Shown one piece after another: positions 3,582 through 51,948 of a stretch of DNA of 64,000 bases. Numbering within the stretch: the first letter of the stretch is position 1; the number at the start of each line of letters is the position of its first letter. The notes beneath the pieces were generated by a model, which saw only the letters and a list, made by a program, of their open reading frames with translations, was not told the origin of the DNA and did not search any database. The stretch spans positions 91,932 through 155,931 of the forward strand of contig JBAZJU010000001.1 of NCBI GenBank assembly GCA_041651155.1, read 5' to 3'. This DNA is from Patescibacteria group bacterium. GTDB lineage: Bacteria; Patescibacteriota; Patescibacteriia; CAIXNZ01. A program made the translations under genes and the position numbers.

Positions 3582-6500
3582 ATGTATAAGCTCAAAGGAA
3601 ATATAAGCAAATTTTTAATAAGCAGTTTGCTTCTGGGAATAGCCTTAAGTCCGCCAGGGGTTTTGGCAGCCACAACTATTGGAGCTGATATTACTACAGG
3701 TGGCAATTTACAAGTAGATGGAGGGTTGCAGTTTACAAGCGGCGCGGCGAACAATTATATCCTAAGTTCAGATGCGACGGGAAACGCCACCTGGATTTCA
3801 GTTGATACTTCATTGGGTACTTCAAATACAGACAGTTTGCCCCAAGGCGCAACTAACCTTTATTACTCTGATGCTGCTGTAGATGCGCGGATCACTTTGC
3901 AAAAAGGAGCCTTAAACGGCTTGGCAGAACTTGATGCCGGCGGCAAGGTGCCTTCGGGGCAATTACCAGCTATTGTAATTACTAATGTTTATGTGGTGGC
4001 TGACATAACTGCCAGAGACGCTTTAGTTGTTCAGACAGGAGATGTGGCAGTTGTTTTAGATGCTGGAGGAGGCGCAGGTGATTCAAGAACTTATATTTAT
4101 GATGGTACTGTTTGGCAGGAATTATTAGACCCGACAAATATATATCTTAGCAAAGCAAATAATCTATCAGATTTGACCAATGTTGCCTTAGCGCAAACTA
4201 ATTTGGGTTTGGGTACAACTGATACGCCGACATTTTCCGGCTTGATTCTTTCTAATTATCTTGATTTTACGCCAGGAGCGCCTCCTGTTTATAGCGAAGG
4301 TAGAGTCTTTTATGACAGTACAGATAAAGCTTTAACTTATTATAACGAAGCCTCAGCTGTGTCAGTTAGCCTTGGCCAAGAGGCCATGACCAGGGTTTAT
4401 AACCAGACGGGCAGCCAAATAAATAATGGCCAGGCGGTTTACATTAACGGAGCAAATGGAGACGTGCCGACCGTTGCTCTGGCCAAAGCGGATAGCATTA
4501 TTACTTCCAATGTCGTTGGTATCACAACCATGAATATCCCTGATGGCAGTTATGGCTATATTACTTTTTTTGGCTTAATACATGGCTTAAATACTGCAAT
4601 ATATTCCAGCGGAGATGAACTTTTTCTCTCAGATACCGTAGCCGGCGGATTTACGGCCACACGTCCCAACCAACCGAATATTAGCGTTCCTCTTGGCTTC
4701 ATTGTTAAACCAGGCGCGGGAAATGGCATAGTTTTAGCAGAAATTAGTGCATATAAACACGGAGCGCTTGAAGTAGGTACGGTCGCTTTTGGCGCAGCAA
4801 ACGGCTTAATAATGGGTGATCCAAATAATTTATTCTGGGATAATGCCACCAAGCGTCTGGGTATTGGCACTAATATCCCTAATTATACTTTAGACGTAGC
4901 CGGTGATATTAAAGCTGGTGATGGTTCTCTGGTTTTACTTGGCTCTCAAACAAATCCTGATCCAGCTGGAATTAACGGCGCCATGTATTATAATACCTCA
5001 ACTGACAAATTCCGCTGTTTTGAAAATAGCGTTTGGAAAGATTGCGCTGATCCCAGCACTATGCATACGCTTCAGTCTGTCTATGACAATGGCGCAACCA
5101 TTACAACAGCCGGGGCTGTAGATATTGGCTTCACATTATCATCAGGTAATTTCACTGTTTCAGGCGCAGGCTCGGTTGACTTAACGCCGACAGCGGCTTC
5201 CAGTTTTACTTCTGGAGATGCTCTAACACTAACAGCTGGCGCTGCCTCTACCTGGGGAACATCTACTGGGAATTTAAACCTGCAGGTAGCCGGTGCTGGT
5301 GCGACAGCTAATGTGCAAATAGGCGCGGGAGTTGCTTCAGCTACGCCTGATTTGCTTGTTTTAGATCTTGGTAGCGCTGAACCAGCTGGCAGCGCAGGCA
5401 GCATTTATTATAACTCCGGTACAAATAAATTTCGTTGTTATGAAAATGGGGTCTGGGTTAATTGTATTTCAGCTTCAGGCAGCGCAGTCCTTTCCGGCAT
5501 TACTGCCGCAACAGCAGGAAATAGCATAAATAATGGCGATAATGCCCAGGTATGGAATTGGTCATTGACCTCTTTGAATAAGATTGGGTTAAAAATCAGT
5601 GAAAATAGTGCTTCAACCGCAACTGGTACTCCTGCACTGATGGAAGCAAAAACCTTAGCCACTTCTACGGCTACACCCTTGCGCGTAATTAACCAAGGAA
5701 CAGGGCCAAGTTTTATTGTTGAAAATGCAGACAGTGATGCTACTCCTACTTTATATATTGAACCTGCCGGTGCATTACCTATCGTTCACACAGGCCATGT
5801 GGCTATTGGCAGTAATTTTTTTGATCCAACTGCCCCTGAAAAATTAAAAGTAGATTCTGGAACTGAAGATTCTTTTAATATCATCAGCGCTGCCGGTGAT
5901 CTAAATAATTATTTGCAGATTAATGTTACAAATAGGAATGCTGGTAACGATGCTTCTTCTGATTTGGTTGCTACGGCAGATAATGGCGATGAAAGTAATT
6001 ATTATGTGGATTTAGGTATTAATTCATCTGGCTATAGTAATCCTGCTTATTCAATTGGCGGTCCAGATGACTCTTATCTTTTAGCTCAAGGCGGGTTGGG
6101 AGCTGGCGGGAACTTGTCAGTTGGGACAGCTACAACTGGCACAGTTATAAAATTCCATACAGGCGGTTCAACAGCGGCTGATGAAAAGATGAGGATTGAG
6201 GATAGCGGAAATGTGGGTATCGGCACGACTTCGTTAAATGCAAGATTAGATCTGTCGCCTGCTACAGCTGATGCTTTAAGAATTGAGCCGTATGGCGCAG
6301 TTGCCGGTAATACTGGCAATTTGGAATTAATGGAACTGGCAGCTAATGGTTCTAATTATGTGGGCTTTAAAGCGCCTGACAGTATTGCCGCAAATGTGGC
6401 CTGGACATTGCCAAACGCTGATGGCACACCGAGCCAGGTTTTATCAACCGATGGGTTGGGGACATTGTCATGGTCCAGCGGCGCAACCAATTATTGGCAA

Positions 6501-9500
6501 AGAGTAGGGACTACTTTATCGCCCGCAACTGCCGGTGATGATGTTACGACTACTGGAAATATTTCCACTACCGGTGTTGGAACAATTACTTCAGCTGGTC
6601 TATTAACCGGCAGTTTAGGCTCAACCATATCTGGCGCAGCAATTAGTTTAAATGATAATAGCAATTTTAATACCACTATAAATACAGGCACTTCAACCGG
6701 AACAGTAACAATAGGCAGCGCCAATGCCGGAGCAATTCAAATAATCAGCGGTGCAGGTTTAACTTTAACCGGAGGAGCTGCTTCAAATATTAACACTACA
6801 GCAAGCGATCTTAGCTTTCAGCCGGCTGGGATAGGCACAACAGCCAATGTGCAAATCGGTGTTGGTCAGCCAGGTTCGACTACTCCGGATCTTTTGGGGT
6901 TAGATGTCAAAAGTACGGCAGGAGATCCTGCTTCTGGCGCAGATGGCGCAATGTATTATAATGAAAATTCAAATAAATTCCGTTGCCATGTAAACGGAGT
7001 ATGGGCTGATTGTGATACCACCGGTGGCACGGTTACTTTACAATCCGCTTACAATAGTGGCGCTACAATTACCACTGCAGGTGCAGTTGATCTGGCCTTT
7101 ACCTTAACCTCTGGCAATTTTACTGCTGCCGGGGCTGGTTCGGTCAATTTAACGCCCACGGGTGCTTCCAGTTTTACTTCTGGCGGAGCCTTAACCTTGA
7201 CTGGCGGCGCTGCTTCAACCTGGTCAACCAGCTCTGGAGCTTTGACTTTGACTTCAGCAATAGCCGCTACTTGGGGAACCACAGCCGGAGATTTACAATT
7301 ACAAGTAGCTGGCAGCGGTACAACAGCTAATATAAAAGTCGGCGCTGGTGGCGCTGGTTCAGCAACACCTGACTTATTTGCCCTGGACGTGAAATCAAGC
7401 GCAGGTGATCCGGCTGGCTATAATGGCGCCATGTATTATAATCAATCGTCTAATGTTTTCCGTTGTTATGAAGCAGGCGGCTGGAAAGATTGCGGCGCAA
7501 CAGGAACAGGAGCCGCGACTTTGCAACAGTCATATAATGCCGGGTCAACAATTACTACGGCAGGCGCAGTTGATCTGGCTCTAACTTTAACATCAGGCAA
7601 TTTCACTGCCACGGGCGCTGGTTCAGTTAATTTAACCCCAACGGGCGCCTCAAGCTTTACTTCCGGCGGAGCCTTAACTTTGACTGGCGGCGCAGCTTCT
7701 ACCTGGGGCACCTCAGCTGGCAATTTAGCTTTGCAGGTCGCAGGAACCGGGACAACTGCCAACGTACAAATAGGCGCTGGCGGTGCTGGTTCAACTACCC
7801 CTGATCTTTTGGCAATTGATGTAAAATCAGACGCTGGTGATCCCGCAGGATTTAACGGGGCTATCTATTACAATGCCAATGGTAACCGATTTCGTTGTTA
7901 TGAAAATGGAGCCTGGAAAGATTGCGATGCAGGCGTGGTGGCTTCTTTGCAGACAGCATATAATAACGGAGGAACTATAATAACAAATGGCAGCCCAATT
8001 GCTTTTACTTTGACTTCTGGTGATTTCACTGCTACAGGCGCAGGCGCAGTAAATTTAACTCCGACCAGCGCTTCCAGTTTTACTTCAGGAGGCGCTTTAG
8101 CATTGACCGGTGGCGCTGCCTCAACCTGGGGTACAAGCGCGGGAAATTTATCTTTGCAGTCAGCTGGCACTGGCACATCTGCTAATATTCAGATCGGCGC
8201 AGGCGGAGCAGGTTCAACTACGCCTGACAGCTTGGTGCTAGATATTAAGTCAGATGCCGGCGACCCGGCAGGCACAAACGGAGCCATGTATTATAATGCT
8301 AATACAAATAAATTTAGATGTTATGTAAATGGCGCTTGGCTTGACTGCGATATGAGATCAATCGGCACTGCCAAAGGAGACTTAATAGCTTATACGGCAA
8401 GCAATACTCCTGTTAGATTGCCAGTCGGCGGAACAAATGGTTTTATGTTAATGGTTGATTCAACCCAGGCAACAGGTATGAGATGGGGCGCTAATTTACC
8501 GACAGCTAATTCCATTGATTTTACTGAATTGAAAGACGCTATGACTGTTGATGCCAATACTTCAATAAATTTAGCCGGCAAAAATTTAACAATAAACGAT
8601 CTTACTGGCGGCGGCGCATTAAGCATGTCCACTAATGCTGCTGCTTTGACTTTAACTGCCGGTGCGGCTTCAACCTGGTCAACCACAGCCGGCGCATTAA
8701 CAATAAATTCAGGGACAACAACTCCTGCTGCTTTGAATTTAGGCAGTGCGGGAACAAATGCAGTAGCAATAGGCAATGCGGGCAGTACTTTTGCCCTGAC
8801 TTCCAGCGGCGGTTTAAATGTCTCAACTGGCGGCGCTTTAACAGGGGTGGCTTCACTTGATACGATTAGTACTTCAGCTACAGCATTAACTTTTGCAGGC
8901 GCTGGTTCTGTTTCACCAGGTGGCGCAAACAATTTAACGCTGGGTTCTACCAATACCACCTCAACTACAAACATCCAATCAGGAACAGGCAATATAAATT
9001 TAATGCCCGCAACTGCCGGCACAACCGCCAATGTACAAATTGGCGGGGGCGGGGCAGGTTCCGCCACCCCAGATCTTTTAGCTCTGGATGTAAAATCTAC
9101 CGCAGGTGACCCGGCCGGATTTAATGGAGCCATGTATTACAATGCCAGCGCAAACAAATTTAAATGTTATGAAAATAGCGCCTGGAAAGACTGTGATACT
9201 GCTGGGACGCAAACATTGCAAGCGGCCTATAATGGTGGTGCCACGATTACCACTTCAGGCGGCAGTGCTATTACCTTTACTACGCCAATAGGCTCAAATA
9301 ATGCAGGCTTAGTTATAAATCAAAATAATTCAACTAATAATCCTGTTGCCTTACAGATAACTAATGCCGGCACGGGCAATGATATTACCGCGACTAATTG
9401 GTCTGTGACTAAAGCAGGTAATCTTTCTACCAGCGGGAATATTACTACAACCGGTTCTGGCATAATTACTTCAGCGTCAACCTTGACTGCGTCAAATGGC

Positions 9501-10733
9501 TTTACCATGACAACAGGAGCCTTAGGTTTGACAGCGACATCTGGTTCAATCGGGTTGAGCGGTCTTACTACCACTTCAATTGTAAATACGGGCGCATTGA
9601 CTTTAACCGGCGGAGCCGCTTCAACTTTATCAACAACGGCAGGCAATTTAACCCTGCAGGCGGGTTCAGGCACAGTCAGTTTAGGAACTTCTACAAATTT
9701 AACAGCTGGAGGAGCGCTGACCATTGATTCAAATACCACTAGCGCACTTAATCTGGGGACTGGCGCAAATGCCAAGACAATCACGATGGGCAATAATACA
9801 GGCGCGACAAGTTTAGCTCTCAAGGCTGGAACAGGCAGCATATTAATGTCTGGACAGGCAACAGGCACATCCGCAACATTCATGGGCGTGCCGGTTAAAA
9901 CAGACGCTGGTGATCCTACGACAACTCAAATAAACGGCGCAATGTATTATAATTCAAATTCCAACAAATTCCGCTGTTTTGAAAACAGCGTCTGGAAAGA
10001 TTGCGATACGTCAGGAACGACGACTTTACAGCAAGCGTATAACGCGGGCGCAACTATTACTACCGCAGGCGCAACTGATTTGGCTTTAACCCTGGCCTCT
10101 GGCAATTTTACGGCAAGTGGAGCCGGATCTGTTAATTTAACGCCGACAGGTGCCTCAAGCTTTACTTCAGGCGGCGCTTTAACACTGACTGGCGGAGCTG
10201 CTTCTACCTGGTCAACTAGCGCTGGCAATTTAACTTTGCAAGCAGGTTCTGGCACTGTGAGTTTAGGAACTTCTACAAATTTAACAGCTGGAGGAGCACT
10301 GACTATTGATTCAAACACGACTAGCGCTCTCAATTTCGGCACGGGCGCTAATGCCAAGACAATCACTATCGGTAATTCAACTACTACAACAGCTTTAATA
10401 TTAGATGCAGGCACGGGTGGTGTTAAAATTGGCGATAGTACTGCCACGGCAATAACTAATCATTATTCAGCAACAGCTGCCTTAGATTTTGGTTCAATTG
10501 ATGGAGTTTGCACTTCACTAACGATTACAGTGACGGGCGCAGCAGCCGGAGATACAGCGATTGCAACTCCGACACCTGTTGCAGGCGGGATTGAAACTGG
10601 CACTGATTCAGTTTGGAATACCTATGTTTCAGCGGCTAATACTGTTACTGTTCGAGCCTGTGACACAAATCCCGCAGGTGGCGGCTTTAATGCTGCTTCT
10701 CAAACTTGGCGCGTAGATGTCTGGAAACATTAA
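3582..10733 (+). CDS. Giant secreted repetitive surface protein (2383 aa) with a signal peptide, a tail-fibre-like N-terminal region and eight ~150-aa Cys-pair repeats
   Basis: A single uninterrupted ORF with an N-terminal hydrophobic signal and G/T/A/S-rich composition. It has the LSKANNLSDLTNVALAQTNLGLG motif typical of phage tail-fibre proteins. The motif PDLL.LDVKS.AGDPAG.NGAMYYN...NKFRCYENG.WKDCD recurs eight times. Confidence 0.8.
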   Translation: MYKLKGNISKFLISSLLLGIALSPPGVLAATTIGADITTGGNLQVDGGLQFTSGAANNYILSSDATGNATWISVDTSLGTSNTDSLPQGATNLYYSDAAVDARITLQKGALNGLAELDAGGKVPSGQLPAIVITNVYVVADITARDALVVQTGDVAVVLDAGGGAGDSRTYIYDGTVWQELLDPTNIYLSKANNLSDLTNVALAQTNLGLGTTDTPTFSGLILSNYLDFTPGAPPVYSEGRVFYDSTDKALTYYNEASAVSVSLGQEAMTRVYNQTGSQINNGQAVYINGANGDVPTVALAKADSIITSNVVGITTMNIPDGSYGYITFFGLIHGLNTAIYSSGDELFLSDTVAGGFTATRPNQPNISVPLGFIVKPGAGNGIVLAEISAYKHGALEVGTVAFGAANGLIMGDPNNLFWDNATKRLGIGTNIPNYTLDVAGDIKAGDGSLVLLGSQTNPDPAGINGAMYYNTSTDKFRCFENSVWKDCADPSTMHTLQSVYDNGATITTAGAVDIGFTLSSGNFTVSGAGSVDLTPTAASSFTSGDALTLTAGAASTWGTSTGNLNLQVAGAGATANVQIGAGVASATPDLLVLDLGSAEPAGSAGSIYYNSGTNKFRCYENGVWVNCISASGSAVLSGITAATAGNSINNGDNAQVWNWSLTSLNKIGLKISENSASTATGTPALMEAKTLATSTATPLRVINQGTGPSFIVENADSDATPTLYIEPAGALPIVHTGHVAIGSNFFDPTAPEKLKVDSGTEDSFNIISAAGDLNNYLQINVTNRNAGNDASSDLVATADNGDESNYYVDLGINSSGYSNPAYSIGGPDDSYLLAQGGLGAGGNLSVGTATTGTVIKFHTGGSTAADEKMRIEDSGNVGIGTTSLNARLDLSPATADALRIEPYGAVAGNTGNLELMELAANGSNYVGFKAPDSIAANVAWTLPNADGTPSQVLSTDGLGTLSWSSGATNYWQRVGTTLSPATAGDDVTTTGNISTTGVGTITSAGLLTGSLGSTISGAAISLNDNSNFNTTINTGTSTGTVTIGSANAGAIQIISGAGLTLTGGAASNINTTASDLSFQPAGIGTTANVQIGVGQPGSTTPDLLGLDVKSTAGDPASGADGAMYYNENSNKFRCHVNGVWADCDTTGGTVTLQSAYNSGATITTAGAVDLAFTLTSGNFTAAGAGSVNLTPTGASSFTSGGALTLTGGAASTWSTSSGALTLTSAIAATWGTTAGDLQLQVAGSGTTANIKVGAGGAGSATPDLFALDVKSSAGDPAGYNGAMYYNQSSNVFRCYEAGGWKDCGATGTGAATLQQSYNAGSTITTAGAVDLALTLTSGNFTATGAGSVNLTPTGASSFTSGGALTLTGGAASTWGTSAGNLALQVAGTGTTANVQIGAGGAGSTTPDLLAIDVKSDAGDPAGFNGAIYYNANGNRFRCYENGAWKDCDAGVVASLQTAYNNGGTIITNGSPIAFTLTSGDFTATGAGAVNLTPTSASSFTSGGALALTGGAASTWGTSAGNLSLQSAGTGTSANIQIGAGGAGSTTPDSLVLDIKSDAGDPAGTNGAMYYNANTNKFRCYVNGAWLDCDMRSIGTAKGDLIAYTASNTPVRLPVGGTNGFMLMVDSTQATGMRWGANLPTANSIDFTELKDAMTVDANTSINLAGKNLTINDLTGGGALSMSTNAAALTLTAGAASTWSTTAGALTINSGTTTPAALNLGSAGTNAVAIGNAGSTFALTSSGGLNVSTGGALTGVASLDTISTSATALTFAGAGSVSPGGANNLTLGSTNTTSTTNIQSGTGNINLMPATAGTTANVQIGGGGAGSATPDLLALDVKSTAGDPAGFNGAMYYNASANKFKCYENSAWKDCDTAGTQTLQAAYNGGATITTSGGSAITFTTPIGSNNAGLVINQNNSTNNPVALQITNAGTGNDITATNWSVTKAGNLSTSGNITTTGSGIITSASTLTASNGFTMTTGALGLTATSGSIGLSGLTTTSIVNTGALTLTGGAASTLSTTAGNLTLQAGSGTVSLGTSTNLTAGGALTIDSNTTSALNLGTGANAKTITMGNNTGATSLALKAGTGSILMSGQATGTSATFMGVPVKTDAGDPTTTQINGAMYYNSNSNKFRCFENSVWKDCDTSGTTTLQQAYNAGATITTAGATDLALTLASGNFTASGAGSVNLTPTGASSFTSGGALTLTGGAASTWSTSAGNLTLQAGSGTVSLGTSTNLTAGGALTIDSNTTSALNFGTGANAKTITIGNSTTTTALILDAGTGGVKIGDSTATAITNHYSATAALDFGSIDGVCTSLTITVTGAAAGDTAIATPTPVAGGIETGTDSVWNTYVSAANTVTVRACDTNPAGGGFNAASQTWRVDVWKH
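4975..10025 (+). repeat. Intragenic tandem repeats, eight units of about 430-480 nt, each encoding the MYYN..FRCYENG.WKDC motif; a near-identical ~200-nt sub-duplication lies at 9590-9790 and 10170-10370
   Basis: The motif occurrences start near nt 4984, 5404, 6950, 7430, 7863, 8287, 9130 and 9945. The last two sub-blocks are about 90% identical at the DNA level. Confidence 0.75.
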
Positions 10734-10825: not shown

Positions 10826-11545
10826 ATGGACATCAAATCATTGAGACCCAAAGACAAAGCTGGCAAAAAGAAAATGCCGAAAATTTTAAAAACAGTTTTA
10901 ATAATTCTTTTGATCGCTTTTGTAGGTTTTGGTATTTATGCTGAATTAAGCAATTTAGGCTACATTAAAACTTTTCAATTAGCCTGGCAAATCCAGCACC
11001 AGCAGCAGCTTTCAGCTGAAGACAAAGCTATTTTAGCTCAATTGAAAAAAATTATGGTTCTGCCCGACGATGTTACACCTACCATGGCGGTTATTACTGA
11101 TATTGACGCCTTAAAAAAACAGCAGCCAACATTTTTTGCCAATGCCAAAAATGATGATCGTTTAATAATTTATCCTGAGCAGGCAATTATTTTTGACGCT
11201 GCTGCTAATAAAATTATTAAAGTCGGCCCGGTGCAAATTAACCAGGCTACCCAGATCCAGTCTGAAAATTTTGCGATTTATAATAGCTTAAAAGATGATC
11301 CGAATAATTTACAGACAACTGCGATGGAAGCAAAAATTAAGGCAGCTTTTGGTAATGCGGTGGTGTCTGTCAAGGCTAATTCTGCAAAATCTGATTATCC
11401 CAAAACTTTAGTGATTGATATTGCAGGCAATAATCCGGATATTCAAAAAATTGCTGATGCTTTGGGCGGTCAAATTTCAGGTCTGCCAGTAGGAGAGAAA
11501 AAACCAGAGGGAGTAGCTGTTTTGGTGATTATTGGAAAGGAATAA
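10826..11545 (+). CDS. Membrane-anchored protein with a LytR_C-like C-terminal domain
   Basis: An N-terminal TM helix, and the C-terminal PKTLVIDIAGNNPDIQKIADALGG...VAVLVIIGKE resembles the LytR/CpsA/Psr C-terminal domain. Confidence 0.35.
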   Translation: MDIKSLRPKDKAGKKKMPKILKTVLIILLIAFVGFGIYAELSNLGYIKTFQLAWQIQHQQQLSAEDKAILAQLKKIMVLPDDVTPTMAVITDIDALKKQQPTFFANAKNDDRLIIYPEQAIIFDAAANKIIKVGPVQINQATQIQSENFAIYNSLKDDPNNLQTTAMEAKIKAAFGNAVVSVKANSAKSDYPKTLVIDIAGNNPDIQKIADALGGQISGLPVGEKKPEGVAVLVIIGKE

Positions 11546-11628
11546 TCAGTAAAAGCACCAAACAACAAATTCCAAATATCAAATAAACACCAAAAAATAA
11601 ATAACAAATTACAAACAAAAATAAAAAT

Positions 11629-11901
11629 ATGGAGAGAAAATTCGATTTAGAAGATCGCACTTTAATTTTTGGAAAAGAAATAATACATTTGTGTAAATCT
11701 TTGCCTGCAAATACTATAAATTTCAGGTTAATTGATCAAATTATACGTTCAGGGACTTCTATGGGAGCGAATTATAGAGAGGCGAATGAAACAGAAACCA
11801 AAAAAGATTTCAAACATAAAATAAGGATTTGCTTAAGAGAGTGTAAAGAAACGGGATATTGGTTGGAACTTATTGAAGAAGCTAACCCCCCCCCCTTTTA
11901 A
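11629..11901 (+). CDS. four-helix-bundle protein (TIGR02436), apparently frameshifted at a C10 homopolymer; the C-terminus continues in the +1 frame to about 11970
   Basis: The N-terminus is paralogous to the 46668 protein (DLEDRTL.F.K..L.LCK...GANYREAN). The ORF stops as ...EANPPPF. The +1 frame then encodes KEKLRKLLQENNELRKIFASILIKSE, matching the paralog's C-terminus ...QLARIFASIGAKK. Confidence 0.6.
   Translation: MERKFDLEDRTLIFGKEIIHLCKSLPANTINFRLIDQIIRSGTSMGANYREANETETKKDFKHKIRICLRECKETGYWLELIEEANPPPF
11886..11895. repeat. C10 homopolymer tract at the frameshift point
   Basis: cccccccccc sits in an otherwise AT-rich genome, exactly where the reading frame of the four-helix-bundle gene breaks. 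Confidence 0.8.
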
Positions 11902-12750: not shown

Positions 12751-14352
12751 ATGAGCCTTAATTTGAATAGGAAAATTTTCATTATTTTAATTGCGTTTAT
12801 ATTTGTATTCGCTCCATTTGTTGTCGGCGCGATTAACGATGTGACAATCAACGGCATTGTTAACTTTAATCTTCTGACCGCTGATACAGCAGATTCAACT
12901 ACCATTTTAGCCGATACAGGCGGGCAGGTTACCTTGTTTAATGTTCAGTCAAATTATATTGATATTACTTTGGATAATTTATCGTCAGTAACTTTTAATG
13001 CTACTGCGCCCAGCCGCTATATTAGAATTTCTTATCAATCTGGTTCAACAGATTATACTATAGCGCCGGCTTGCCCAACAACAACTGCAACTTTAACTGG
13101 TACAGGCGCGCAAGTTGTTTTGCGCCTGGAAGTTTACACGACTAATATCTGTCCTCCGGGTCCAGGCGGAGGCGGTCATACGCCTGTTTTCCCGACTAAT
13201 TACTCGGTAAAAATAAATAGTGGAGCAGCTACAACATCTACCACTAGCGTGACTGTAAATTTAAGCGCTCAAAATGCTGTAGAAGTAGTGGTCAGCAATG
13301 ATCCGAGTTTTATTGGCGCTACCTGGCAATCATTTACAAACCCTCTGAATTTACCCTGGACGCTAACCTCTGGTGATGGCACAAAAACTGTTTATGTAAT
13401 ATACAAAAGTTCAGATGGCAACCTAAGCCCGACTTTAAGCGCTTCTATAATTTTGCAAACTGGTACAGTCGTGCCGCCTGTGGTTCCGCCAGTTGTACCA
13501 CCTGTGGTTCCTCCTCCACCAGGACAATGTGCGATTGATTGTTCTTCAATTACTTATGACCTTTATATTGTTAATCCAAATGGGACAGAAAGGCATATTA
13601 ATACGCTTTATGCCAAGGCTCTTGCTTTAGCTCCTGAAAAAATTCAGTATAGCTTTGAAGATAATGTAGATTTTAATTATAAGGATGTTATTATTATTGT
13701 AGATAAAAGCCAGTGCTCGAGCAGAAAAATTGAAGTAACGGCAGTCAATGGCTCTTGGCACCATCAGATCAAGATAAAATTATTTAATAACGGGCAATTA
13801 TCTGAAGATATATTACTGTGGCCGGATTCCCATTTAGCCATTGGCCAAACCAAGACCATAAATTTTGTAGATTATTCCAGCCTTTGTTTGCAGGAAGTGA
13901 CTTTGAATTCAGGCGATGTTTTTAAAGGCAGCGGAGACACGGTTTATTATTATGGCGCTGATGGCAAGCGTTATATTTTTCCCACTCTCGGCACCTACTT
14001 AAGCTGGTATCCAGATTTTAGCCAGGTTAAAAGAGTGCCGGACAGTCAGTTGCCCAGCATTCCATTAGGTACAAATATTACTTATAAACCCGGCGTTAAA
14101 ATGCTAAAAGCCCAGACTTTGCCAAATGTTTACGCGGTTGATCTCCATGGCGTTTTAAGATGGATTACTTCTGAGACAGTCGCCGCCAGCTTATATGGTT
14201 CGGAATGGAATAAAAACATAGATGATTTAAGCGATGCATTTTTTAGTGATTATATAATTGGGGACGATATTACGAGCGCAACTATTTTTATTCCCAGTTT
14301 GACAAGCGCAGCTGCAATTGATATTAATTATGATAAGCGGATTACGCCTTAA
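12751..14352 (+). CDS. Secreted protein with a (PVVP)n proline linker and the C-terminal ~125-aa shared surface-targeting domain
   Basis: A signal peptide, PPVVPPVVPPVVPPPP, and a C-terminal VYYYGADGKRYIFPTLGTYLSWYPDFSQVKRV...LRWITSETVAASLYGSEW that is homologous to domains in the 47459, 54421, 56633 and 58323 proteins. Confidence 0.6.
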   Translation: MSLNLNRKIFIILIAFIFVFAPFVVGAINDVTINGIVNFNLLTADTADSTTILADTGGQVTLFNVQSNYIDITLDNLSSVTFNATAPSRYIRISYQSGSTDYTIAPACPTTTATLTGTGAQVVLRLEVYTTNICPPGPGGGGHTPVFPTNYSVKINSGAATTSTTSVTVNLSAQNAVEVVVSNDPSFIGATWQSFTNPLNLPWTLTSGDGTKTVYVIYKSSDGNLSPTLSASIILQTGTVVPPVVPPVVPPVVPPPPGQCAIDCSSITYDLYIVNPNGTERHINTLYAKALALAPEKIQYSFEDNVDFNYKDVIIIVDKSQCSSRKIEVTAVNGSWHHQIKIKLFNNGQLSEDILLWPDSHLAIGQTKTINFVDYSSLCLQEVTLNSGDVFKGSGDTVYYYGADGKRYIFPTLGTYLSWYPDFSQVKRVPDSQLPSIPLGTNITYKPGVKMLKAQTLPNVYAVDLHGVLRWITSETVAASLYGSEWNKNIDDLSDAFFSDYIIGDDITSATIFIPSLTSAAAIDINYDKRITP

Positions 14353-22785: not shown

Positions 22786-22825
22786 TCAGCCCTTGCCAAA
22801 ATTGAAATTTAATGCTAAAATAGAC

Positions 22826-22848
22826 CTAAGGATTTAATCCTTTTTTTA
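22826..22848 (+). terminator. Weak rho-independent terminator after pgi
   Basis: aggat-tta-atcct followed by a run of 7 T. Confidence 0.4.
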
Positions 22849-22865
22849 TTTTGGAAAATTTATTT

Positions 22866-23004
22866 GGAGCGGTAGTTCCCGCCTTCGCTGAAGCTTCGGT
22901 CTTCACCGACCGAAGTCCCGCCGTGGCGGGACGAAGGTCGGCGGGCAGGCAGCTTGGAAGCATGAGCTGTAGTGGGTGCTAACCAGCTTCATAAATTTTT
23001 TTTA
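22866..23004 (+). other. GC-rich structured element (candidate small RNA or tRNA-derived remnant) whose first 13 nt match the 5' end of the adjacent tRNA-Asp
   Basis: ggagcggtagttc is identical to the tRNA 5' end. There are several perfect hairpins (cttcggtc/gaccgaag, cccgcc/ggcggg, gaagcttc). The element ends in a T9 run at 22996-23004. Confidence 0.4.
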
Positions 23005-23013
23005 AGTTATCCT

Positions 23014-23090
23014 GGAGCGGTAGTTCAGTTGGTTAGAACGCTACCCTGTCACGGTAGAGGTCACGGGTTCGAGTCCCGCCCGCTCCGCAC
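23014..23090 (+). tRNA. tRNA-Asp (anticodon GTC)
   Basis: A cloverleaf with GGAGCGG/CCGCTCC acceptor, GTTC..GAAC D-arm, CTACC-CTGTCAC-GGTAG anticodon arm and GGGTTCGAGTCCC T-arm. CCA is not encoded. Confidence 0.85.
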
Positions 23091-23105
23091 CGAACCAGAA
23101 CAAAA

Positions 23106-23136
23106 CAACACCTAATATAAAGGGTGTTGTTTTTAT
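23106..23136 (+). terminator. Terminator after tRNA-Asp (caacacc..ggtgttg plus T-run)
   Basis: A 7-bp stem followed by TTTTTT. Confidence 0.55.
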
Positions 23137-23208: not shown

Positions 23209-24225
23209 TTATTTTTTTCTGTTTCGTGAGAATGATTTTGGATAGTTGGCGTGCCTTCTAATTAATTGCTTGAGCGGTTCATTCCGCTTTACAATATTTT
23301 GCACGATTAAGTGACGCAATAAGTCGCTGGGCGTCTTACTGCATTTAGCCAGGTTGCTTATTAGCAGATACGAGAAATAAGTTCTTTTGCATAACAATTC
23401 TGTTGTTTTTTGGCAAAATGGGATGTCATGCAATAAGATTAGAACTCTGCCTTCAGTGTCATAGATAAACGCCGTTTTTTCTTCAGGTTGCGCCCTTAAG
23501 AATTTTTCTTTTAGGATTTTCCTGGCATTTTGCCTGTTTGTATCAGGATAATCCCTGCTATTAGCAATATTCCACGATTGCATTAAGGTTTTTGAGTTTA
23601 AAATCATTCTTAACTGGTATTCAGTTATAAATGAATTTTTTAATAAATTTGCCTGGACATTTAAGTCGTGCAACAATTGTGCGTTGCGGCAAATAAACTC
23701 AAGTCCCTGGGAATTTTTATGGAATTTTGCTATTAAACGGGCATGTTCTAATCCCGAAGAATGATTTTCCAGAATCTTTTTAATTACCCGAGTATCAGGA
23801 TCATGGCACAGGGCAAAAAGCAATGCCCCTGTCTGGAGAGTGGCTTCATTTATTCTTTGGTCAACTGTCATTGAGGAGAATTTTTCACGATATATAGCCA
23901 AGTGATTCTCGTTTTTGATATTTTCCGGCGCTTTGAAAATATCATTGTTATACTTTTCGATTTCCTCAAGTAAAGTGGGCAAGAAGTTGCCATTTTGATA
24001 CCAGTTAGGATTTTCTGCCCTTAGTTTGGCATCATTTTTCATGGCGCAATTTAGGCAAATCACGGTATAATTGCTAATGTCAGAACCAACAGCGGTTTTC
24101 GGCGCGCAATAGAAAAATGGCCATTCTTTATTGCTTGAATCCTTAAATTTTTGTCCGATAGTGCCTTTTGTATTACACTTTGAACAAGAACATTCCAAGG
24201 CCTTTAAAGACTCGTTATTTGTCAC
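23209..24225 (-). CDS. Hypothetical protein with an N-terminal Cys-rich zinc ribbon
   Basis: CSCSKC...C..C/CLNC near the N-terminus. No other recognisable domain. The gene lies next to a tRNA gene. Confidence 0.45.
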   Translation of the reverse strand: MTNNESLKALECSCSKCNTKGTIGQKFKDSSNKEWPFFYCAPKTAVGSDISNYTVICLNCAMKNDAKLRAENPNWYQNGNFLPTLLEEIEKYNNDIFKAPENIKNENHLAIYREKFSSMTVDQRINEATLQTGALLFALCHDPDTRVIKKILENHSSGLEHARLIAKFHKNSQGLEFICRNAQLLHDLNVQANLLKNSFITEYQLRMILNSKTLMQSWNIANSRDYPDTNRQNARKILKEKFLRAQPEEKTAFIYDTEGRVLILLHDIPFCQKTTELLCKRTYFSYLLISNLAKCSKTPSDLLRHLIVQNIVKRNEPLKQLIRRHANYPKSFSRNRKK

Positions 24226-30160: not shown

Positions 30161-30549
30161 TGGAGATGGCGGGAATTGAACCCGCGTCTAGAAAGCCTTT
30201 TAAAATACTTCTACAAGCTTATTTTAGATTAAAATTACGCCTTAAGATAATAATCTAAACAAAAATCTTAGGGCCTGCCTTAAATTTTTAGCTTAATAAC
30301 TTAAGGCTAAATTATTGAGCGAGCCTGAATTTATGGCACCCAATACCTTTTATCAGGCATCAAAGGCGTGGATGGTTGCTGTTTTAGTTAAACTGCAACT
30401 GACGCAAGGTTAAAAGCAAAAGCTGCTTTAACATTGCTTAATAAGTTTTTTGCACTTATTAGATTTCTATTTTTAGTTTTACGAGATTAAATAGCATGCT
30501 CGGCTTGCGATATTTTTAAAAGATCTTCCTATCGAGGCCTGTCATCCCC
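30161..30549 (-). ncRNA. ssrA: tmRNA (SsrA)
   Basis: On the - strand the 5' end is GGGGAUGACAGGCCUCGAU. The 3' end GCGGGUUCAAUUCCCGCCAUCUCCA gives the T-arm and an acceptor pairing with the 5' GGGGAUG. A 9-bp terminator hairpin (30141-30160) follows. smpB is the next gene upstream, with a TTACAAT-repeat promoter region at 30550-30630. Confidence 0.8.
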
Positions 30550-47458: not shown

Positions 47459-50400
47459 ATGATTAAGAAAATTTTTACTGTTGGCGTGGTAGTATTGACC
47501 ATTTTTTGGGCTGTCGGTCTAGCAGCATTTGTTCCAACCGCTCAGGCTACAACTTTTAGCTCTGGCGATTTGATCAAAGCTTCTTTACCAGCAGTTTATT
47601 ACTACGGTGCTGACGGCAAAAGGTATGTGTTCCCAAACGAACCAACATACAAAACCTGGTATGCTGACTTCTCCAGCGTGAAAACTATCACTGACGGAGA
47701 ATTAGCCACCATTCAAATCGGCGGCAATGTCACTAACAAACCAGGCGTTAAAATGGTGAAAATCACCACTGATCCAAAAGTATACGCTGTGGCTGCAAAT
47801 GGCACATTGAGGTGGGTAACCACTGAATCACTTGCTGCTTCTTTATACGGTTCTAACTGGGGAGCAATGATTCTTGATGTGTCTGATGCTTTCTTTGTTA
47901 ATTACTCTATTGGCGCTCAAATCAGCAATGTTTCTGATTATTCTCCATCTGCTGCAACTGCTGCTGCTCAATCAATCAATGTTGATAAGGGCTTAGCAGG
48001 CGCAACAACAACTGGCGGTAATTTAAATGTTTCTTTAGCATCTGATACACCAGCTGCTTCTACAGTTGCTGGCGGTGCTGCTGCTAATATGTCAAAGATC
48101 ATTTTAGCTACTGGTTCCGCAGCTGTTAAAGTTAAATCTTTATACATCACTCGTTCAGGCTTAAGCGCAAACGATGATGTTGAAAATGTTAAATTAATCA
48201 ATGTTGCTGGCGCTACTGTTGGCGATGTTGGTTCATTTGGTTCAAACAGCAAAGCATTAATTTCTTTTGTTCCATCATTAGAAATTGCTGCTAATACTTC
48301 AGTCTCATATTATGTCCGTGCTAGTATCAGATTAGGCGCTCCTGCTGGCAACACGGTTGCTTTGGGCGTTGCATTAAATACTGATGTAGTATTGGAAGCA
48401 GGTACTGTTAGCGGTGCATTCCCAGTCGTTGGCAACTACATGTCAATTGTAGCTTTAGCTAACATTGGCAGTGCTACTGTTGGCCAAGATGCAGCAGTTG
48501 TCGATACTATGCCAGATGCTGGCGCAAAAAGAGTTCAGGTCTCTGAATTTTACGTCATGGCTGGTGCAAATGAAGATTTGACTATTGAAGCTATGAGTTT
48601 AATTGAAGCTGGTTCAGCAAATACTGCTGATTCAGCTAATATTGAATTATACAGTTTGACAGAAGGTAGAACATTGGGCACTGCTGCTTCATGGGATGCA
48701 AATTCTCGTGTTACTGTTGGTAGCATGAATGTTGTTATTCCAAGAGGTGGTAAACACATTTTCCAGGTTTATGCTGATATCGTAAGCGGTTCAGGCAACG
48801 TTATTGATGTTGATTTAACTGATGGTACTGATGTTTTAGTAACTGTTAAGGGTAATACCTATGGTTTTTATCTTTCTCCAATAGTTGCTGTGACTCCTCC
48901 ATTAAACTGGGATGGTCAAGGTATTCCAGGAGTAGGTGGTCAAACCGTAGGCGCTGGTTTATTAAATGTTACTAAATCAACTTCTTCTCCAGCTACTGGT
49001 AATATTGCTCGCGCTTCTGATCAGGCAATTGCAACTTATGATTATGAAGTACGAGGTGAATCTATTAAGATTACTTCAACTATGGTTACAATTACAGAAG
49101 GTGCTGCATTTAATAATGTTGTTCCAAACTGGAATAGAGTTGCTAATGTGAAATTAGTTGATGAAAACGGTTTAGTTGTTGCGGGCCCAAAGAATTTAAC
49201 AAATGTATCTGTCGGCGCTGCCGGTGGTGTTACAACTGTTACTTTCAATGAAACTTATGTTGTACCAACTGGTACTCATAAATACACTGTTAAAGTTGAT
49301 GTTTTGAGCAATGCTCCAGCTGGCGCAACAGCTACTTTGGTAGCTAGTTTAACTCCAAGCGCTGATATTACAGCAACTGGGGTTACAACTCGTGAAAGTG
49401 TAGTTCCAACGCCTGCTGTTGCTGTCGCTGGCAATGGTGAGACTATCTTGGGTGTAGCATTAACTGTTACCAATTTAACTCAACCAGCTGCTAGATCAAT
49501 TGCTGTTGGTACTCAGAATTTTGTCTGGGCAACTACTTCATTAGATGCAACTGCTTCTGGTGAAGATGTTCGTGTTTCATCTGTTACAGTTTTGGATACT
49601 TTAGGTGTTGGTAATACTGATGATATGACTGCTTTGCAGAATCTTTCAATCTGGGCAGATTTAACATCAGCTAGTTCTACTCGTGGTGATGCTTATGAAA
49701 CAAAGGTTTCTAATAATGAGCAGCCAACACTTGCTACTACTAAAGCAATTAACTTAACACAAGTTATCACTGTTCCAAAAGGAACTTATGTTAAGATTGC
49801 TGTTGTTGGTAATTTATCAACCTTAGCATTTGTTACAGATACTCACCAGATTAGTATTGCTGCGCCTATAACAGCAACTGGTAAATCAACAGGCAATGCT
49901 CCTGTTATCCCAGCTATTATTACTTTGGGACAGGTAATGCTTGTATCTGCTTCTGGTACTTTAACTGCGTCATTAGATGCTTCTACTCCATTAGCTAATA
50001 TTGTAGTTAGTGGTGCACAAAAGGTTACTGTTGCTGCTTTCAAATTAACAGCTGATAATATTGAAGCTATTGAACTTGATGATCTTTTGGTTAATGATGT
50101 TGCGGCAATTGCTACAAATCCAGTTGCATCAAATTGGTACTTGTATGCAAATAGTCGCGCTGATGGCGGTTCAATTGCTGATCCGGTTGCTGTAGCTGCT
50201 GGCGGTTTTGCGCCACAATTCATTTTAGCTGATAATACAATTGTTGTTCCATCTAATAGCAGTGTTGTCTTGACTCTTAAAGCAGACATCGCCCCTGTTG
50301 ATGGCGCTACTGTAATTAATGGTGATGATTTAATCCCAGAAATTACTGCAGCTGCAAGCATAAATGCTACAGGCGTGTCTTCTGGTGTCCCAGCCACCAT

Positions 50401-50956
50401 CTTTAATGGTCTTGGCTGGTTCCCAAAAACTGCTGCTACAGATTTGGCATTTGCTTCAAAACCAACTATCAGCCTAAATGCTTCTTCTCCAAGCGGTGCC
50501 TTAGTGCCAAGCGCTAATACTTTAGTAGCCATCTTTAATATTGCTGCTGATTCAGCTGATGATATTTCCTTTGATGACGCTGGAAGCGCAGGCACAAAAT
50601 TAGTAGTTACTATGGCTGAAGCTTGTACTGGTGCTGGTGGCGCTACAAATATGATTTTGAAAGACGAAGGTGGCACAGTTTTATCTACCGCAACAGAAGC
50701 TGCTGATGCATGTACTGTTGGCAATAAGACATTTGAAGTCTGGACTAACCCATTAGTTATTGCTAAAGGTACCACCAAGAAAGTATATGTCTATGGTGTT
50801 ACTACTAGTGCAACAACTGCTGGTGATAATTTACAGGCTTCTATTACAGATGCTGCTGCTGGCAATGTTACTTGGGGTATTAATGGTGCAGGTGCTTTTG
50901 CAACTGCTGCCATTACTGCTCGTGGTTCAATTTATGCCAATGCACTTTCTAGATAA
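47459..50956 (+). CDS. Large secreted surface (S-layer-like) protein, 1165 aa, with the N-terminal shared ~125-aa domain
   Basis: A signal peptide (AFVPTAQA), then GDLIKASLPAVYYYGADGKRYVFPN...LRWVTTESLAASLYGSNW. A/T/S/G/V-rich with few Cys. Paralogous to 54421. Confidence 0.8.
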   Translation: MIKKIFTVGVVVLTIFWAVGLAAFVPTAQATTFSSGDLIKASLPAVYYYGADGKRYVFPNEPTYKTWYADFSSVKTITDGELATIQIGGNVTNKPGVKMVKITTDPKVYAVAANGTLRWVTTESLAASLYGSNWGAMILDVSDAFFVNYSIGAQISNVSDYSPSAATAAAQSINVDKGLAGATTTGGNLNVSLASDTPAASTVAGGAAANMSKIILATGSAAVKVKSLYITRSGLSANDDVENVKLINVAGATVGDVGSFGSNSKALISFVPSLEIAANTSVSYYVRASIRLGAPAGNTVALGVALNTDVVLEAGTVSGAFPVVGNYMSIVALANIGSATVGQDAAVVDTMPDAGAKRVQVSEFYVMAGANEDLTIEAMSLIEAGSANTADSANIELYSLTEGRTLGTAASWDANSRVTVGSMNVVIPRGGKHIFQVYADIVSGSGNVIDVDLTDGTDVLVTVKGNTYGFYLSPIVAVTPPLNWDGQGIPGVGGQTVGAGLLNVTKSTSSPATGNIARASDQAIATYDYEVRGESIKITSTMVTITEGAAFNNVVPNWNRVANVKLVDENGLVVAGPKNLTNVSVGAAGGVTTVTFNETYVVPTGTHKYTVKVDVLSNAPAGATATLVASLTPSADITATGVTTRESVVPTPAVAVAGNGETILGVALTVTNLTQPAARSIAVGTQNFVWATTSLDATASGEDVRVSSVTVLDTLGVGNTDDMTALQNLSIWADLTSASSTRGDAYETKVSNNEQPTLATTKAINLTQVITVPKGTYVKIAVVGNLSTLAFVTDTHQISIAAPITATGKSTGNAPVIPAIITLGQVMLVSASGTLTASLDASTPLANIVVSGAQKVTVAAFKLTADNIEAIELDDLLVNDVAAIATNPVASNWYLYANSRADGGSIADPVAVAAGGFAPQFILADNTIVVPSNSSVVLTLKADIAPVDGATVINGDDLIPEITAAASINATGVSSGVPATIFNGLGWFPKTAATDLAFASKPTISLNASSPSGALVPSANTLVAIFNIAADSADDISFDDAGSAGTKLVVTMAEACTGAGGATNMILKDEGGTVLSTATEAADACTVGNKTFEVWTNPLVIAKGTTKKVYVYGVTTSATTAGDNLQASITDAAAGNVTWGINGAGAFATAAITARGSIYANALSR

Positions 50957-51009
50957 TTGTTGATTCACTGAGATATATTCTTTCCGCGCTCGCGGAATAG
51001 AATAGCGAA

Positions 51010-51044
51010 CCCCTCTGGCGCAAGTCAGGGGGGTTTTGTTTTGG
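51010..51044 (+). terminator. rho-independent terminator (cccctctg..cagggggg plus T-run)
   Basis: An 8-bp stem with one G-U, followed by ttttgttttgg. Confidence 0.6.
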
Positions 51045-51259
51045 TGGAAGAATGGTGGTTTGGGAGGAATTTATCAACCTCCCCCAATCCCCCTCCTTTT
51101 CTAAGGAGGGGGTATGGAGGTTATCATGACCTAAGGTGCAGGGCTTTGGGTTTTGTTTTTTGGGGAAGATCGTGGAGGGAGTGGGACGGTTGATTTGTTT
51201 TGTTTAGGGATTTATGGTATTATAAAGGGAGCAATTATTTAATATTCAATTTAAAAAAT

Positions 51260-51517
51260 ATGAAAGAAAAAAATAAATTACAATTTAATATTATTTTTAG
51301 GCCTGAAGAAGAAGGTGGATTTACTGCAATAGTTCCGTCTTTGCCAGGTTGTATTACTTACGGCAAAGATTTAAAAGAAGCTAAAAAAATGGCGATTGAT
51401 GCAATTTATGGCTATATTGAATCAGTAAAAAAACATAAAGAAGAAATACAGTCAGATGAGGAAAGTTTTATTAGTTTAATTAGGCTTCCTCAAAAGCACT
51501 CTAGACTTTATGCCTAA
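51260..51517 (+). CDS. hicB: HicB family antitoxin (UPF0150 N-domain)
   Basis: EEGGFTAIVPSLPGCITYGKDLKEAKKMAIDAI. The ORF-track start at 51200 lies inside the conserved promoter repeat, so the real start is 51260. Confidence 0.65.
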   Translation: MKEKNKLQFNIIFRPEEEGGFTAIVPSLPGCITYGKDLKEAKKMAIDAIYGYIESVKKHKEEIQSDEESFISLIRLPQKHSRLYA

Positions 51518-51734
51518 ATTGCCATCATTAACTCCAAAGAAACTTTTACGAGTATTGGAAAAATGCGGGTTTGTAACAGACCATATAGCCGGCAGCCACT
51601 ATATCCTTTTTCAATCCGCTTCAAATAAAAGAATTACATTGCCATTCCATTGTAAAGATTTGCCAAAAGGTACCCTCCACTCTATTTTAAAGGCAGCCGG
51701 AATTGAAATAACAGATTTGAAAAAATTAAAATAA
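51510..51734 (+). CDS. hicA: HicA family mRNA interferase toxin
   Basis: LLRVLEKCGF...GSHYILF...LPFHCKDLPKGTLHSILKAAGI. It overlaps hicB by 8 nt. Confidence 0.7.
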   Translation: MPKLPSLTPKKLLRVLEKCGFVTDHIAGSHYILFQSASNKRITLPFHCKDLPKGTLHSILKAAGIEITDLKKLK

Positions 51735-51948
51735 CTCGTCTCGGCTCGCCTCGCGAAGCGGGCTTCGCTGGACATAGATATCGTTTTTGTCCCTTGAGTG
51801 CCTTCGCCGAAGTCGGATGAAAAACACAAATCTCGCCATTTTTTAAAGGGCGTTTTTTGTTTTGCTCTGTAACACATTTGGTGCAGGGCTTTGGTTTTTA
51901 CGATAAAATTAAGGTCGGAAACCCCATAAATTTGGGTTTTATGCCGTA

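Follow-up and report, generated by a model that had tools for sequence, protein, structure and literature searches.

A structured leader element before tRNA-Asp in Patescibacteria that carries a copy and a complement of the 5' half of its own tRNA

Why should a tRNA gene be preceded by a copy of its own first thirteen nucleotides? The question is raised by the tRNA-Asp(GTC) locus in a 64,000-nucleotide stretch from a Patescibacteria group bacterium (GenBank assembly GCA_041651155.1, contig JBAZJU010000001.1, positions 91,932 to 155,931), the whole of which is called here the window. In this locus the 13-mer GGAGCGGTAGTTC at 22866-22878 is identical to nucleotides (nt) 1-13 of the tRNA (23014-23026) and opens a GC-rich, structured element directly upstream of it. 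The tRNA gene is the only one in the window, which also has a transfer-messenger RNA (tmRNA). The 13-mer occurs exactly twice in the 64 kb; a second exact occurrence within 148 nt is not expected by chance, and with two mismatches allowed 0.43 matches are expected window-wide. An earlier inspection of the letters by themselves (the sequence-only reading) had noticed the repeat and had proposed an independently transcribed small RNA, an attB-like remnant of an excised integrative element or a degenerate tRNA duplicate. Comparison with relatives points elsewhere. The element is very probably a conserved, co-transcribed structured domain of the pre-tRNA-Asp leader, and it may, with a likelihood somewhat short of even, act in cis as a conformational switch on the maturation of the tRNA that it precedes.

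What does the element consist of? Its stretch is the GC-richest in the window, with 72 nt at 70% GC or above against 37% overall and no other such element anywhere in the window, and the region folds better than its shuffled versions (-64.2 kcal/mol, z = -4.0). The sequence-only reading had seen here a run of perfect GC hairpins closed by nine Ts. The arms that it quoted are all present (CTTCGGTC at 22894-22901 and GACCGAAG at 22908-22915; CCCGCC at 22878-83 and 22917-22; GGCGGG at 22925-30 and 22940-45), as is the palindrome GAAGCTTC at 22890-97, but most of the run belongs to a 42-nt insertion, 22898-22939, that is private to the window genome and lies within a conserved hairpin. The T-run has eight residues (22996-23003) rather than nine, begins 5 nt past the last helix and is not kept in relatives, and the structured part of the element stops at about 22990 rather than reaching up to this run. 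Overlooked at that time was the 3' part of the element, 22979-22990, which is complementary to the 5' half of tRNA-Asp.

Every member of the family found in relatives has the same five-part layout: the 5' copy, a hairpin P2, a hairpin P3, a box CTAACCA(G/A)CT complementary to the D-loop region of the tRNA (the anti-D box) and a variable tail, followed by a spacer and the tRNA. From the matches of copy, box and tail it follows that the element combines nt 1-13 of its own tRNA, in sense, with a guide that is antisense to nt 1-23 of that tRNA, two hairpins lying between them; the sense copy ends where the antisense box begins, at tRNA nt 13|14. P2 contains a 3x3 internal loop rich in pyrimidines and has a small stem at its apex, and the base of P3 is CAGGCA/UGYCUG. 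Short forms of the element measure about 83-90 nt, and both the 5' copy and the real tRNA have U at position -1. The spacers, of 19-72 nt, are poorly conserved except for ..TTATCYT right before the tRNA.

Relatives were sampled by more than one route. In what follows W is the window copy of the element and numbers of the type L001 are sampled relative loci. A pattern search for a truncated 13-mer, a gap of 100-130 and a tRNA-Asp start returned L001 only, whose element is shorter than that of W, and is uninformative on rarity since its range omits W (gap 134) and the short forms (about 92). A scan of metagenome contigs with an 18-mer gave 38 loci, 26 of them chance matches in GC-rich coding DNA; it yielded L003, L009, L012, L016, L021, L025, L035 and L036, with L032 and L033 being duplicates of L001. 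Independent sampling ran through the upstream PGI protein, the contigs then being fetched, and added L062, L065, L067 and L069 as well as two element-bearing duplicates (L063 of L012, L072 of L009); a PGI protein search of genome contigs gave no match. The element accordingly stands upstream of tRNA-Asp in W, L001 and the twelve further loci named. A plain tRNA-Asp was found among the PGI-sampled loci in L064 (Candidatus Falkowbacteria), L068, L070 and L071, and L066 has no tRNA-Asp in range. The comparison with relatives that the sequence-only reading had proposed therefore gives a divided answer, in that some relatives do have a plain tRNA-Asp and most of those sampled bear the element. Homologs occur in at least 13 diverged Patescibacteria lineages, with PGI proteins 56-80% identical to that of W. 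Gene order around the unit varies and PGI is adjacent in some loci only, while the element always adjoins tRNA-Asp. L001 (CAYNWH010000003.1) is labelled "uncultured Gammaproteobacteria bacterium"; its gene content, synteny and tRNA-Asp leader match Patescibacteria and the label is probably wrong.

How closely do the tRNA-like segments follow the tRNA beside them? The 5' copy is identical to nt 1-13 of its own tRNA in 11 of 12 members, through three variants: GGAGCGGTAGTTC in eight loci, GGAGCGGTAGCTC in L062 and GGGGGCGTAGCTC in L065 and L067, the last three loci having been recovered free of the bias of the 18-mer. The anti-D box is the perfect reverse complement of nt 14-23 in L003, L009, L012, L016, L025, L062 and L065; elsewhere there is one G.U pair in W, a G.U pair and one mismatch in L036, and one mismatch in L067. 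At tRNA position 16, the sole variable position of the D-loop, C faces G in five of five cases and T faces A or G, with no A-C mismatch. The tails differ by indels yet complement the local acceptor strand, with GCTTC, CTCC (L003, L012, L025), CCGCTCC (L001) and CTGCTTT found for GGAGCGG, and CGCTTTC (L065) and CGCGCCC (L067) for GGGGGCG. In L009, which has the tail GAACTACTTGTCC, the antisense is continuous from nt 23 to nt 1 (CTAACCAACTGAACTACTTGTCC) and includes a 17-nt exact complement.

These matches also bear on two statements of the sequence-only reading. Its suggestion of a degenerate tRNA duplicate holds to the extent that two segments are tRNA-derived (nt 1-13 in sense; nt 14-23 plus the acceptor strand in antisense), and fails in that the segments stay matched and are not decaying. 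Its statement that the element is not a foldable tRNA is borne out by ARAGORN and the Rfam tRNA model, neither of which makes a tRNA call on it. A tRNA or pseudo-tRNA (RF00005) was rejected as an identity for the element since only 23014-23088 is called (ARAGORN; Rfam at E up to 10) and the element has in common with a tRNA no more than nt 1-13 (sense) and nt 14-23 (antisense).

The hairpins and the junction that they form are conserved as an RNA structure. A covariance model, R1, built from eight short forms recovers all 14 members, and R1 is a new RNA family with no match in Rfam 15; the Rfam scan that had been called for assigned no family at E up to 10 over 501 nt of the window and at E up to 1 over four homolog loci. 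In 629 kb that include the whole window the model finds one full-length copy per element-bearing locus and no copy outside tRNA-Asp sites, and its partial matches are P2-like GC hairpins only, at least one of which (3' of tRNA-Asp in L065) is terminator-like. Over 85 core columns the mean pairwise identity is 73%, conservation reaching at least 90% at nt 1-19, at nt 29-45 and over most of the anti-D box, and the spacer has an identity of about 50% by a cruder measure than that used for the core. The element has 52-62% GC in a genome of 37% GC. Within the model-based alignment 90% of pair cells are standard, against 28-47% with the partners slid. P2 has compensatory changes in L065 (CCTGCC/GGCAGG, a C-G pair becoming U-A) and in L067 (CCCCGCACT/AGTGCGGGG), and the inner pairs of P3 covary. 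The frequent G.U pairs are compatible with the + strand only, which marks it as the one present in the RNA. Since large parts of the element hardly vary, covariation is limited in extent. Most of the 14 single-sequence folds show a three-way junction, with the 5' segment bound to box and tail in a helix P1 of 11-13 bp; those of W, L036 and L062 differ. Since a conserved, GC-rich, covarying core lies beside a poorly conserved, length-variable spacer, and since repeat slippage offers an easy route of loss, comparison argues for selection on the RNA structure wherever a lineage has retained the element.

Not all of the hairpin content belongs to this core. The 42-nt insertion in P2 is absent from L036, L016, L003, L012, L025, L001, L062 and L065, and lineage-specific GC-rich hairpins in P2 or beside P3, differing insertions at nearby sites, occur in W, L035, L009, L021 and L069. 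GC-rich P2-like hairpins with GCTTCGGCGG(G), apparent terminators, lie at L065 11273-11329 and 3' of tRNA-Asp in L025, L036 and L067, and P2 may derive from a hairpin of this terminator type. Three other relationships were tried and set aside. A resemblance of P2 in W to a tRNA 3' end (CCCGCC-CGCT) was taken as coincidence because P2 in L001 and L065 does not follow the tRNA; CAGGCAG as a complement of the anticodon stem of some tRNA-Asp variants was rejected for want of covariation; and a pairing of nt 3-8 with GGCAGCT, given by RNAalifold on the raw MAFFT alignment, was dropped because the L065 variant does not support it. Between L016 (3889-3995) and L003 (6137-6243) leader, P2 and tRNA are near-identical, and P3 and tail are very different.

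Is the element transcribed with the tRNA? All relatives, whether they bear the element or not, have kept upstream a promoter close to consensus, TTGCCA-17-TGCTATAAT, and within 5-7 nt of it comes a short hairpin (AAGGATnTAATCCTT) with a T-rich run behind it. Between element and tRNA in W no site resembling a promoter or a terminator was found. As the conserved upstream promoter also serves tRNA-Asp where the element is absent, the element most likely belongs to the pre-tRNA. Relatives that lack the element show how it fits into this unit. In these the leader is separated from tRNA-Asp by 0-14 nt (L064, L068, L070) or 46 nt (L071); the leader-to-element junction of L035 equals the leader-to-tRNA junction of L070, which is of the same subclade; in L036, L035 and L021 the element begins right after the T-rich run of the leader; and the tRNA-Asp genes of L064 and L067 are identical, with the element in L067 only. 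Judged by these junctions, element, spacer and one 13-mer behave together as a single indel whose limits are set by the 13-nt direct repeat, so that, as read from the alignments, the element is gained or lost exactly between the repeats. Three further features of the leader and spacer may be recorded here. In L067 (about 11400-11737) element and spacer form about 1.7 tandem copies, of which the upstream one has neither 5' copy nor P2 5' strand. Immediately ahead of the tRNA, 7-10 nt (23004-23013 in W) are conserved as ..GTTATCYT in L003, L009, L012, L016, L036, L067 and L069. In W, ATCCT before the tRNA could form pairs with the leader hairpin at its AGGAT arm.

What, then, might such a leader do? 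The transcript started at the tRNA's own promoter would run through leader hairpin, sense copy, P2, P3, guide and spacer into the tRNA. While the element is being transcribed the guide would pair with the 5' copy to form P1 and, with P2 and P3, a three-way junction. As the 5' half of the tRNA emerges, its D-loop could pair with the anti-D box, which, being unpaired or weakly paired, would act as a toehold, upon which tRNA nt 1-13, being identical to the copy, would displace the copy from the tail in a strand exchange at no energy cost. The tRNA 5' half would then be sequestered, and the freed copy could pair with the 3' acceptor strand of the tRNA. Two states would result: fold A, with P1 and a normal cloverleaf, from which RNase P can yield mature tRNA-Asp, and fold B, in which a guide:tRNA helix masks the 5' half and the copy sits on the acceptor 3' strand. 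The balance between them, possibly set by a binder of the P1/P2/P3 junction, would gate or delay the maturation of tRNA-Asp.

Predicted folding is in keeping with this scheme in several respects. The duplex of the guide with tRNA nt 1-26 is worth -14 to -34 kcal/mol, is stronger than that of the guide with the 5' copy in 9 of 11 members, and is reached by only 0-6 of 200 shuffles in 9 of 11; in these duplexes nt 8-13 are looped out. When the precursor is folded as lengthening prefixes, the guide pairs with the copy in 8 of 10 members at the end of the element, with the real tRNA in 9 of 10 once tRNA nt 23 is included, and at full length the acceptor 3' strand of the tRNA pairs with the 5' copy in 9 of 10. 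The full-length minimum-energy folds show the same pairing (guide with tRNA, copy with acceptor 3' strand) in all 12 members. What can be defended is a precursor with two mutually exclusive folds of nearly equal energy, not one in which fold B dominates, and the element probably competes with folding and processing of the tRNA.

A number of observations weigh against the switch. The gap between fold B and a separate "element + cloverleaf", -2 to -13 kcal/mol, is indistinguishable from that of shuffled-guide controls in 10 of 11 members (the exception being L009); this failed control is the reason that the claim for fold B was reduced to near isoenergetic and that the duplex and prefix analyses were relied on instead. 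The nearest-neighbour energy model also ignores the stabilisation of tRNA by tertiary contacts. Sampling favours the match of copy and tRNA, with 10 of 14 homologs recovered by an 18-mer that forces identity of nt 1-18, and the association at position 16 comes from 11 related sequences and is estimated (not computed) to be non-significant by a Fisher test. The element is dispensable, since four relatives lack it. In L069 the copy has drifted to 10 of 13 matches with its own tRNA (with the 5' end of tRNA-Asp in the related L071 it agrees at 12 of 13), and the anti-D box is decayed or lost in L001 and L069. Position 11 of the copy tracks the tRNA (T to C in L062, L065 and L067) with no compensation in the tail there; pure guide competition does not explain this, and to account for it the copy would have to pair with nt 24 in the 3' strand of the tRNA's D-stem, or a process at the DNA level would have to be at work. 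Among W, L036, L016, L003 and L012 leader types and 3'-half types occur in mosaic combinations, which suggests recombination or fast evolution of the 3' half. Finally, the model does not account for a terminator-looking hairpin at the very 5' end of the predicted pre-tRNA-Asp, which is present in all relatives with arm covariation AAGGCC/CCTT.

Which known systems does the element resemble? In riboswitch and attenuator leaders, including the synthetic RNase P riboswitch (Ender et al. 2021, PMC7897497), the 3' strand of P1 is likewise shared with an alternative helix downstream, conserved junction nucleotides go with peripheral hairpins of variable length, and the synthetic version has the processing of a tRNA by RNase P as its output. 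The element has the corresponding architecture in its predicted form, a multi-helix junction whose P1 3' strand enters a mutually exclusive downstream helix, as judged from most of the 14 folds, the pair support, the prefix folds and the duplex energies. It departs from riboswitches in using the tRNA 5' half as its expression platform, in setting against each other one strand that copies the tRNA exactly and one that complements it exactly, in a putative product that is a tRNA rather than an mRNA, and in having no Rfam match. T-boxes resemble it as cis leaders complementary to a particular tRNA; however, they stand before aminoacyl-tRNA synthetase or amino-acid genes, read the anticodon and NCCA end in trans, and have stem I and T-box motifs, whereas the element gives no Rfam T-box match (at the E values given above) and is complementary to tRNA nt 1-23 and not to the anticodon or 3' end. 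In the tyrT operon of E. coli a tRNA fragment is repeated within its own operon and the repeat RNA (rtT, RF00391) is released by processing. There, in contrast, the repeat is of the tRNA 3' end, lies downstream of the tRNA, has no antisense segment and is enterobacterial, and the element has no match to it in Rfam. The internal guide sequence of group I introns (P1/P10) is one continuous strand complementary to both sides of a junction. The guide of the element is similar in spanning the junction at tRNA nt 13|14, where the 5' copy ends. A group I intron in a tRNA gene, with a core of at least 200 nt and a place in the anticodon loop, was rejected on the grounds that there is no Rfam intron match, that short forms are about 83-90 nt and that the downstream tRNA is intact; the element has no catalytic core and lies outside an intact tRNA gene that needs no splicing.

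Could the element instead be a stable RNA that works in trans? RNase P would cut at the 5' copy and again at the tRNA, freeing a GC-rich RNA of 90-130 nt that might, for example, bind a protein through the P2/P3 junction or use its anti-D box to pair with tRNA D-loops. RNase P substrates other than tRNAs, such as the 4.5S RNA precursor and tmRNA, have a long terminal helix from G1 that mimics the acceptor/T-stem stack. At 11-13 bp, and starting with tRNA acceptor sequence, P1 is compatible in length and sequence with such a minihelix of about 12 bp, cleavage there being hypothetical; U at -1 of both copies speaks for the same possibility, as do the high GC content and lineage-specific hairpin expansions, which resemble those of stable structural RNAs, and AGYTGGTTAG is a D-loop sequence common to many tRNAs. 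Against it, the anti-D box in W-type members is largely buried in P1, and an RNA acting in trans has no need for identity of nt 1-13 with the neighbouring tRNA or for adjacency in every lineage, so that this explanation appears unlikely. The models of bacterial small SRP RNA and tmRNA do not match the element. The former (RF00169) had been considered for a resemblance to CAGG...GGAAGCA and was set aside, with no match at E up to 10 on the 501 nt, homologs folding as a three-way junction where that RNA is a single rod with the symmetric and asymmetric loops of helix 8 and a GNRA-type tetraloop, and GGAAGCA lying in the unconserved loop of P3.

Could it be, as a second possibility, the relic of a local sense-antisense-sense micro-duplication, made by template switching and devoid of RNA-level function? 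The order of sense (1-13), antisense (23-1) and sense (tRNA) is that expected of fold-back template switching. Similarity would be maintained by templated (quasi-palindrome) mutation, the insertion would be tolerated as the 5' copy neutralises the antisense, and it would be lost by slippage between the 13-nt repeats. The patchy distribution, the indel bounded exactly by the 13-nt repeat (L035 against L070, and L067 against L064 with their identical tRNAs), the tandem array of L067 and the drifting copy of L069 all fit such a history. What makes it improbable is that P2, the base of P3 and the anti-D box are conserved and GC-rich in a 37% GC genome next to the poorly conserved spacer of 19-72 nt, that compensatory changes keep P2 and P3 paired, that the tails are imperfect complements, such that hairpin-templated correction cannot explain a perfect direct repeat through three variants, and that with slippage loss so easy the retention of the element is argued to be selected.

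A non-autonomous mobile element or integration scar, inserted at tRNA-Asp 13/14 with a 13-bp target-site duplication, or an att-like variant that carries a replacement tRNA 5' end and uses the antisense segment as a possible targeting guide, is very unlikely. It would explain why 13-nt direct repeats flank the insertion and match the host tRNA, why the leader-to-element junction is the leader-to-tRNA junction of relatives without the element, why close relatives (L064 and L067) differ in its presence, and why leaders and 3' halves are mosaic. Integrative elements, though, normally duplicate the 3' end of a tRNA. Like the element, att sites in tRNA genes have a direct repeat of part of the gene flanking extra DNA, but theirs is the 3' part, with kilobases of DNA, an integrase and cargo that varies by strain, whereas here it is the 5' part around 90-170 nt of conserved structured RNA. 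An integrative att site, and with it the attB-like remnant of the sequence-only reading, was rejected since the repeat is nt 1-13, no integrase or transposase was found in the nine neighbouring open reading frames (ORFs), about 5 kb (Pfam, NCBIfam, PHROGs), and the inter-repeat content is a conserved covarying RNA structure in at least 13 lineages. A miniature inverted-repeat transposable element or a derivative of an insertion sequence was rejected on the R1 result of one full copy per locus and none elsewhere in the 629 kb. The ends are defined by the repeat with no terminal inverted repeats, viral contigs, phages and plasmids gave no relevant match, and a spacer far more diverged than the core indicates long residence and not recent spread. 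An independent small RNA gene with its own promoter and a T-run terminator, the leading idea of the sequence-only reading, is barely credible, for although the eight Ts follow the element in W and the region folds well, this run is 5 nt from the stem, is not called a terminator and is missing from relatives, leader hairpin and element have no promoter-like site between them, the element can start directly after the T-rich run of the leader, and the upstream promoter serves tRNA-Asp even without it.

With these alternatives weighed, the proposed switch in the pre-tRNA-Asp leader can be placed in a wider setting. To our knowledge the RNA biology of the ultrasmall, uncultured Patescibacteria is almost unexplored. 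Leader pairing can inhibit RNase P (PMC9433436), and an engineered leader switch can make tRNA processing ligand-dependent (Ender et al. 2021, PMC7897497); no description of a natural conserved element of such a kind was found in the literature searched. A doubtful but specific extension is that P1, P2 and P3 form a sensor that leaves the guide on its decoy or lets it invade the real tRNA, making a natural switch with tRNA maturation as output and gating RNase P by ligand, protein, temperature or transcription speed. If true, this would be a new class of cis-regulation and the natural counterpart of engineered RNase P riboswitches, and it would add both a new logic to bacterial gene regulation and a compact natural case of toehold-mediated strand exchange. 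The leader holds a decoy and an antisense of the tRNA 5' half, both matched to the tRNA across diverged lineages. Even as a tolerated rearrangement it would be of note, as a harmful antisense insertion neutralised in cis and then precisely removed by repeat slippage.

Table 1. Features of the tRNA-Asp transcription unit in the window
Feature	Position	Strand	Basis
Promoter-like site TTGCCA-17 nt-(TG)CTAAAAT, extended -10	22793..22821	+	Scored 10/12 with TG; module conserved in all relatives
Leader hairpin AAGGATTTAATCCTT, then T-rich run; predicted transcript 5' end	22828..22852	+	Conserved; arm covariation AAGGCC..CCTT in L035, L069, L070
5' copy, equal to tRNA-Asp nt 1-13 (acceptor 5' strand, nt 8-9, D-stem 5' strand); P1 5' strand	22866..22878	+	Identity to cognate tRNA in 11/12 homologs
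Hairpin P2, CCCGCC 22878-83 : GGCGGG 22940-45, internal loop and apical mini-stem	22878..22945	+	98.7% of cells paired; compensatory changes
42-nt GC-rich insertion in P2 with two extra hairpins, window genome only	22898..22939	+	Alignment of relatives
Hairpin P3, conserved base CAGGCAG : ..CTGT-AGTG, interior variable	22946..22974	+	Inner pairs covary (UA/CG/AU); G.U pairs
Anti-D box CTAACCAGCT, complement of tRNA-Asp nt 14-23 (AGTTGGTTAG), 9 Watson-Crick + 1 G.U	22979..22988	+	10/10 complement in 7 homologs
Tail AGCTTC, complement of GGAGC(T), the acceptor 5' strand of both 5' copy and real tRNA; P1 3' strand	22985..22990	+	Folds
AT-rich spacer with T8 (22996-23003), conserved 3' end AAGTTATCCT	22991..23013	+	Alignment
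tRNA-Asp (GTC)	23014..23088	+	ARAGORN; Rfam RF00005, 67.4 bits
Intrinsic-terminator-like hairpin closing the transcription unit	23102..23133	+	Terminator scan

Beyond the transcription unit, on the 3' side of the tRNA, an ORF of 338 aa (23209-24225, - strand) lies between tRNA-Asp and a C39 peptidase gene as a window-specific insertion. It has no counterpart in the nine metagenome or MAG (metagenome-assembled genome) homolog loci compared and, when considered as a possible integrase, gave no Pfam, NCBIfam or PHROGs match. The tmRNA of the window lies at 30161-30549 (- strand) and has the tag peptide AKNLLSNVKAAFAFNLASVAV; in relatives tmRNA adjoins smpB. It is the only other RNase P substrate in the loci, and neither an upstream copy nor an antisense of its 5' end was found in the window or six relatives. 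Other repeats lie elsewhere in the window. At 4900-10400 diverged coding repeats, each of about 420 nt (families D1-D7), form a long array that probably encodes a single, very large repetitive protein; 13900-14140 and 47500-59800 hold four to five segments of paralogous genes with blocks 60-85% identical (families D3, D8, D10, D11); segments of intergenic or promoter-like character recur at 51190-53853 and 62506-63074 (82 nt at 93%, 44 nt at 91% and 139 nt at 96%); and there is a GC-rich stretch of 41 nt at 51734-51774.

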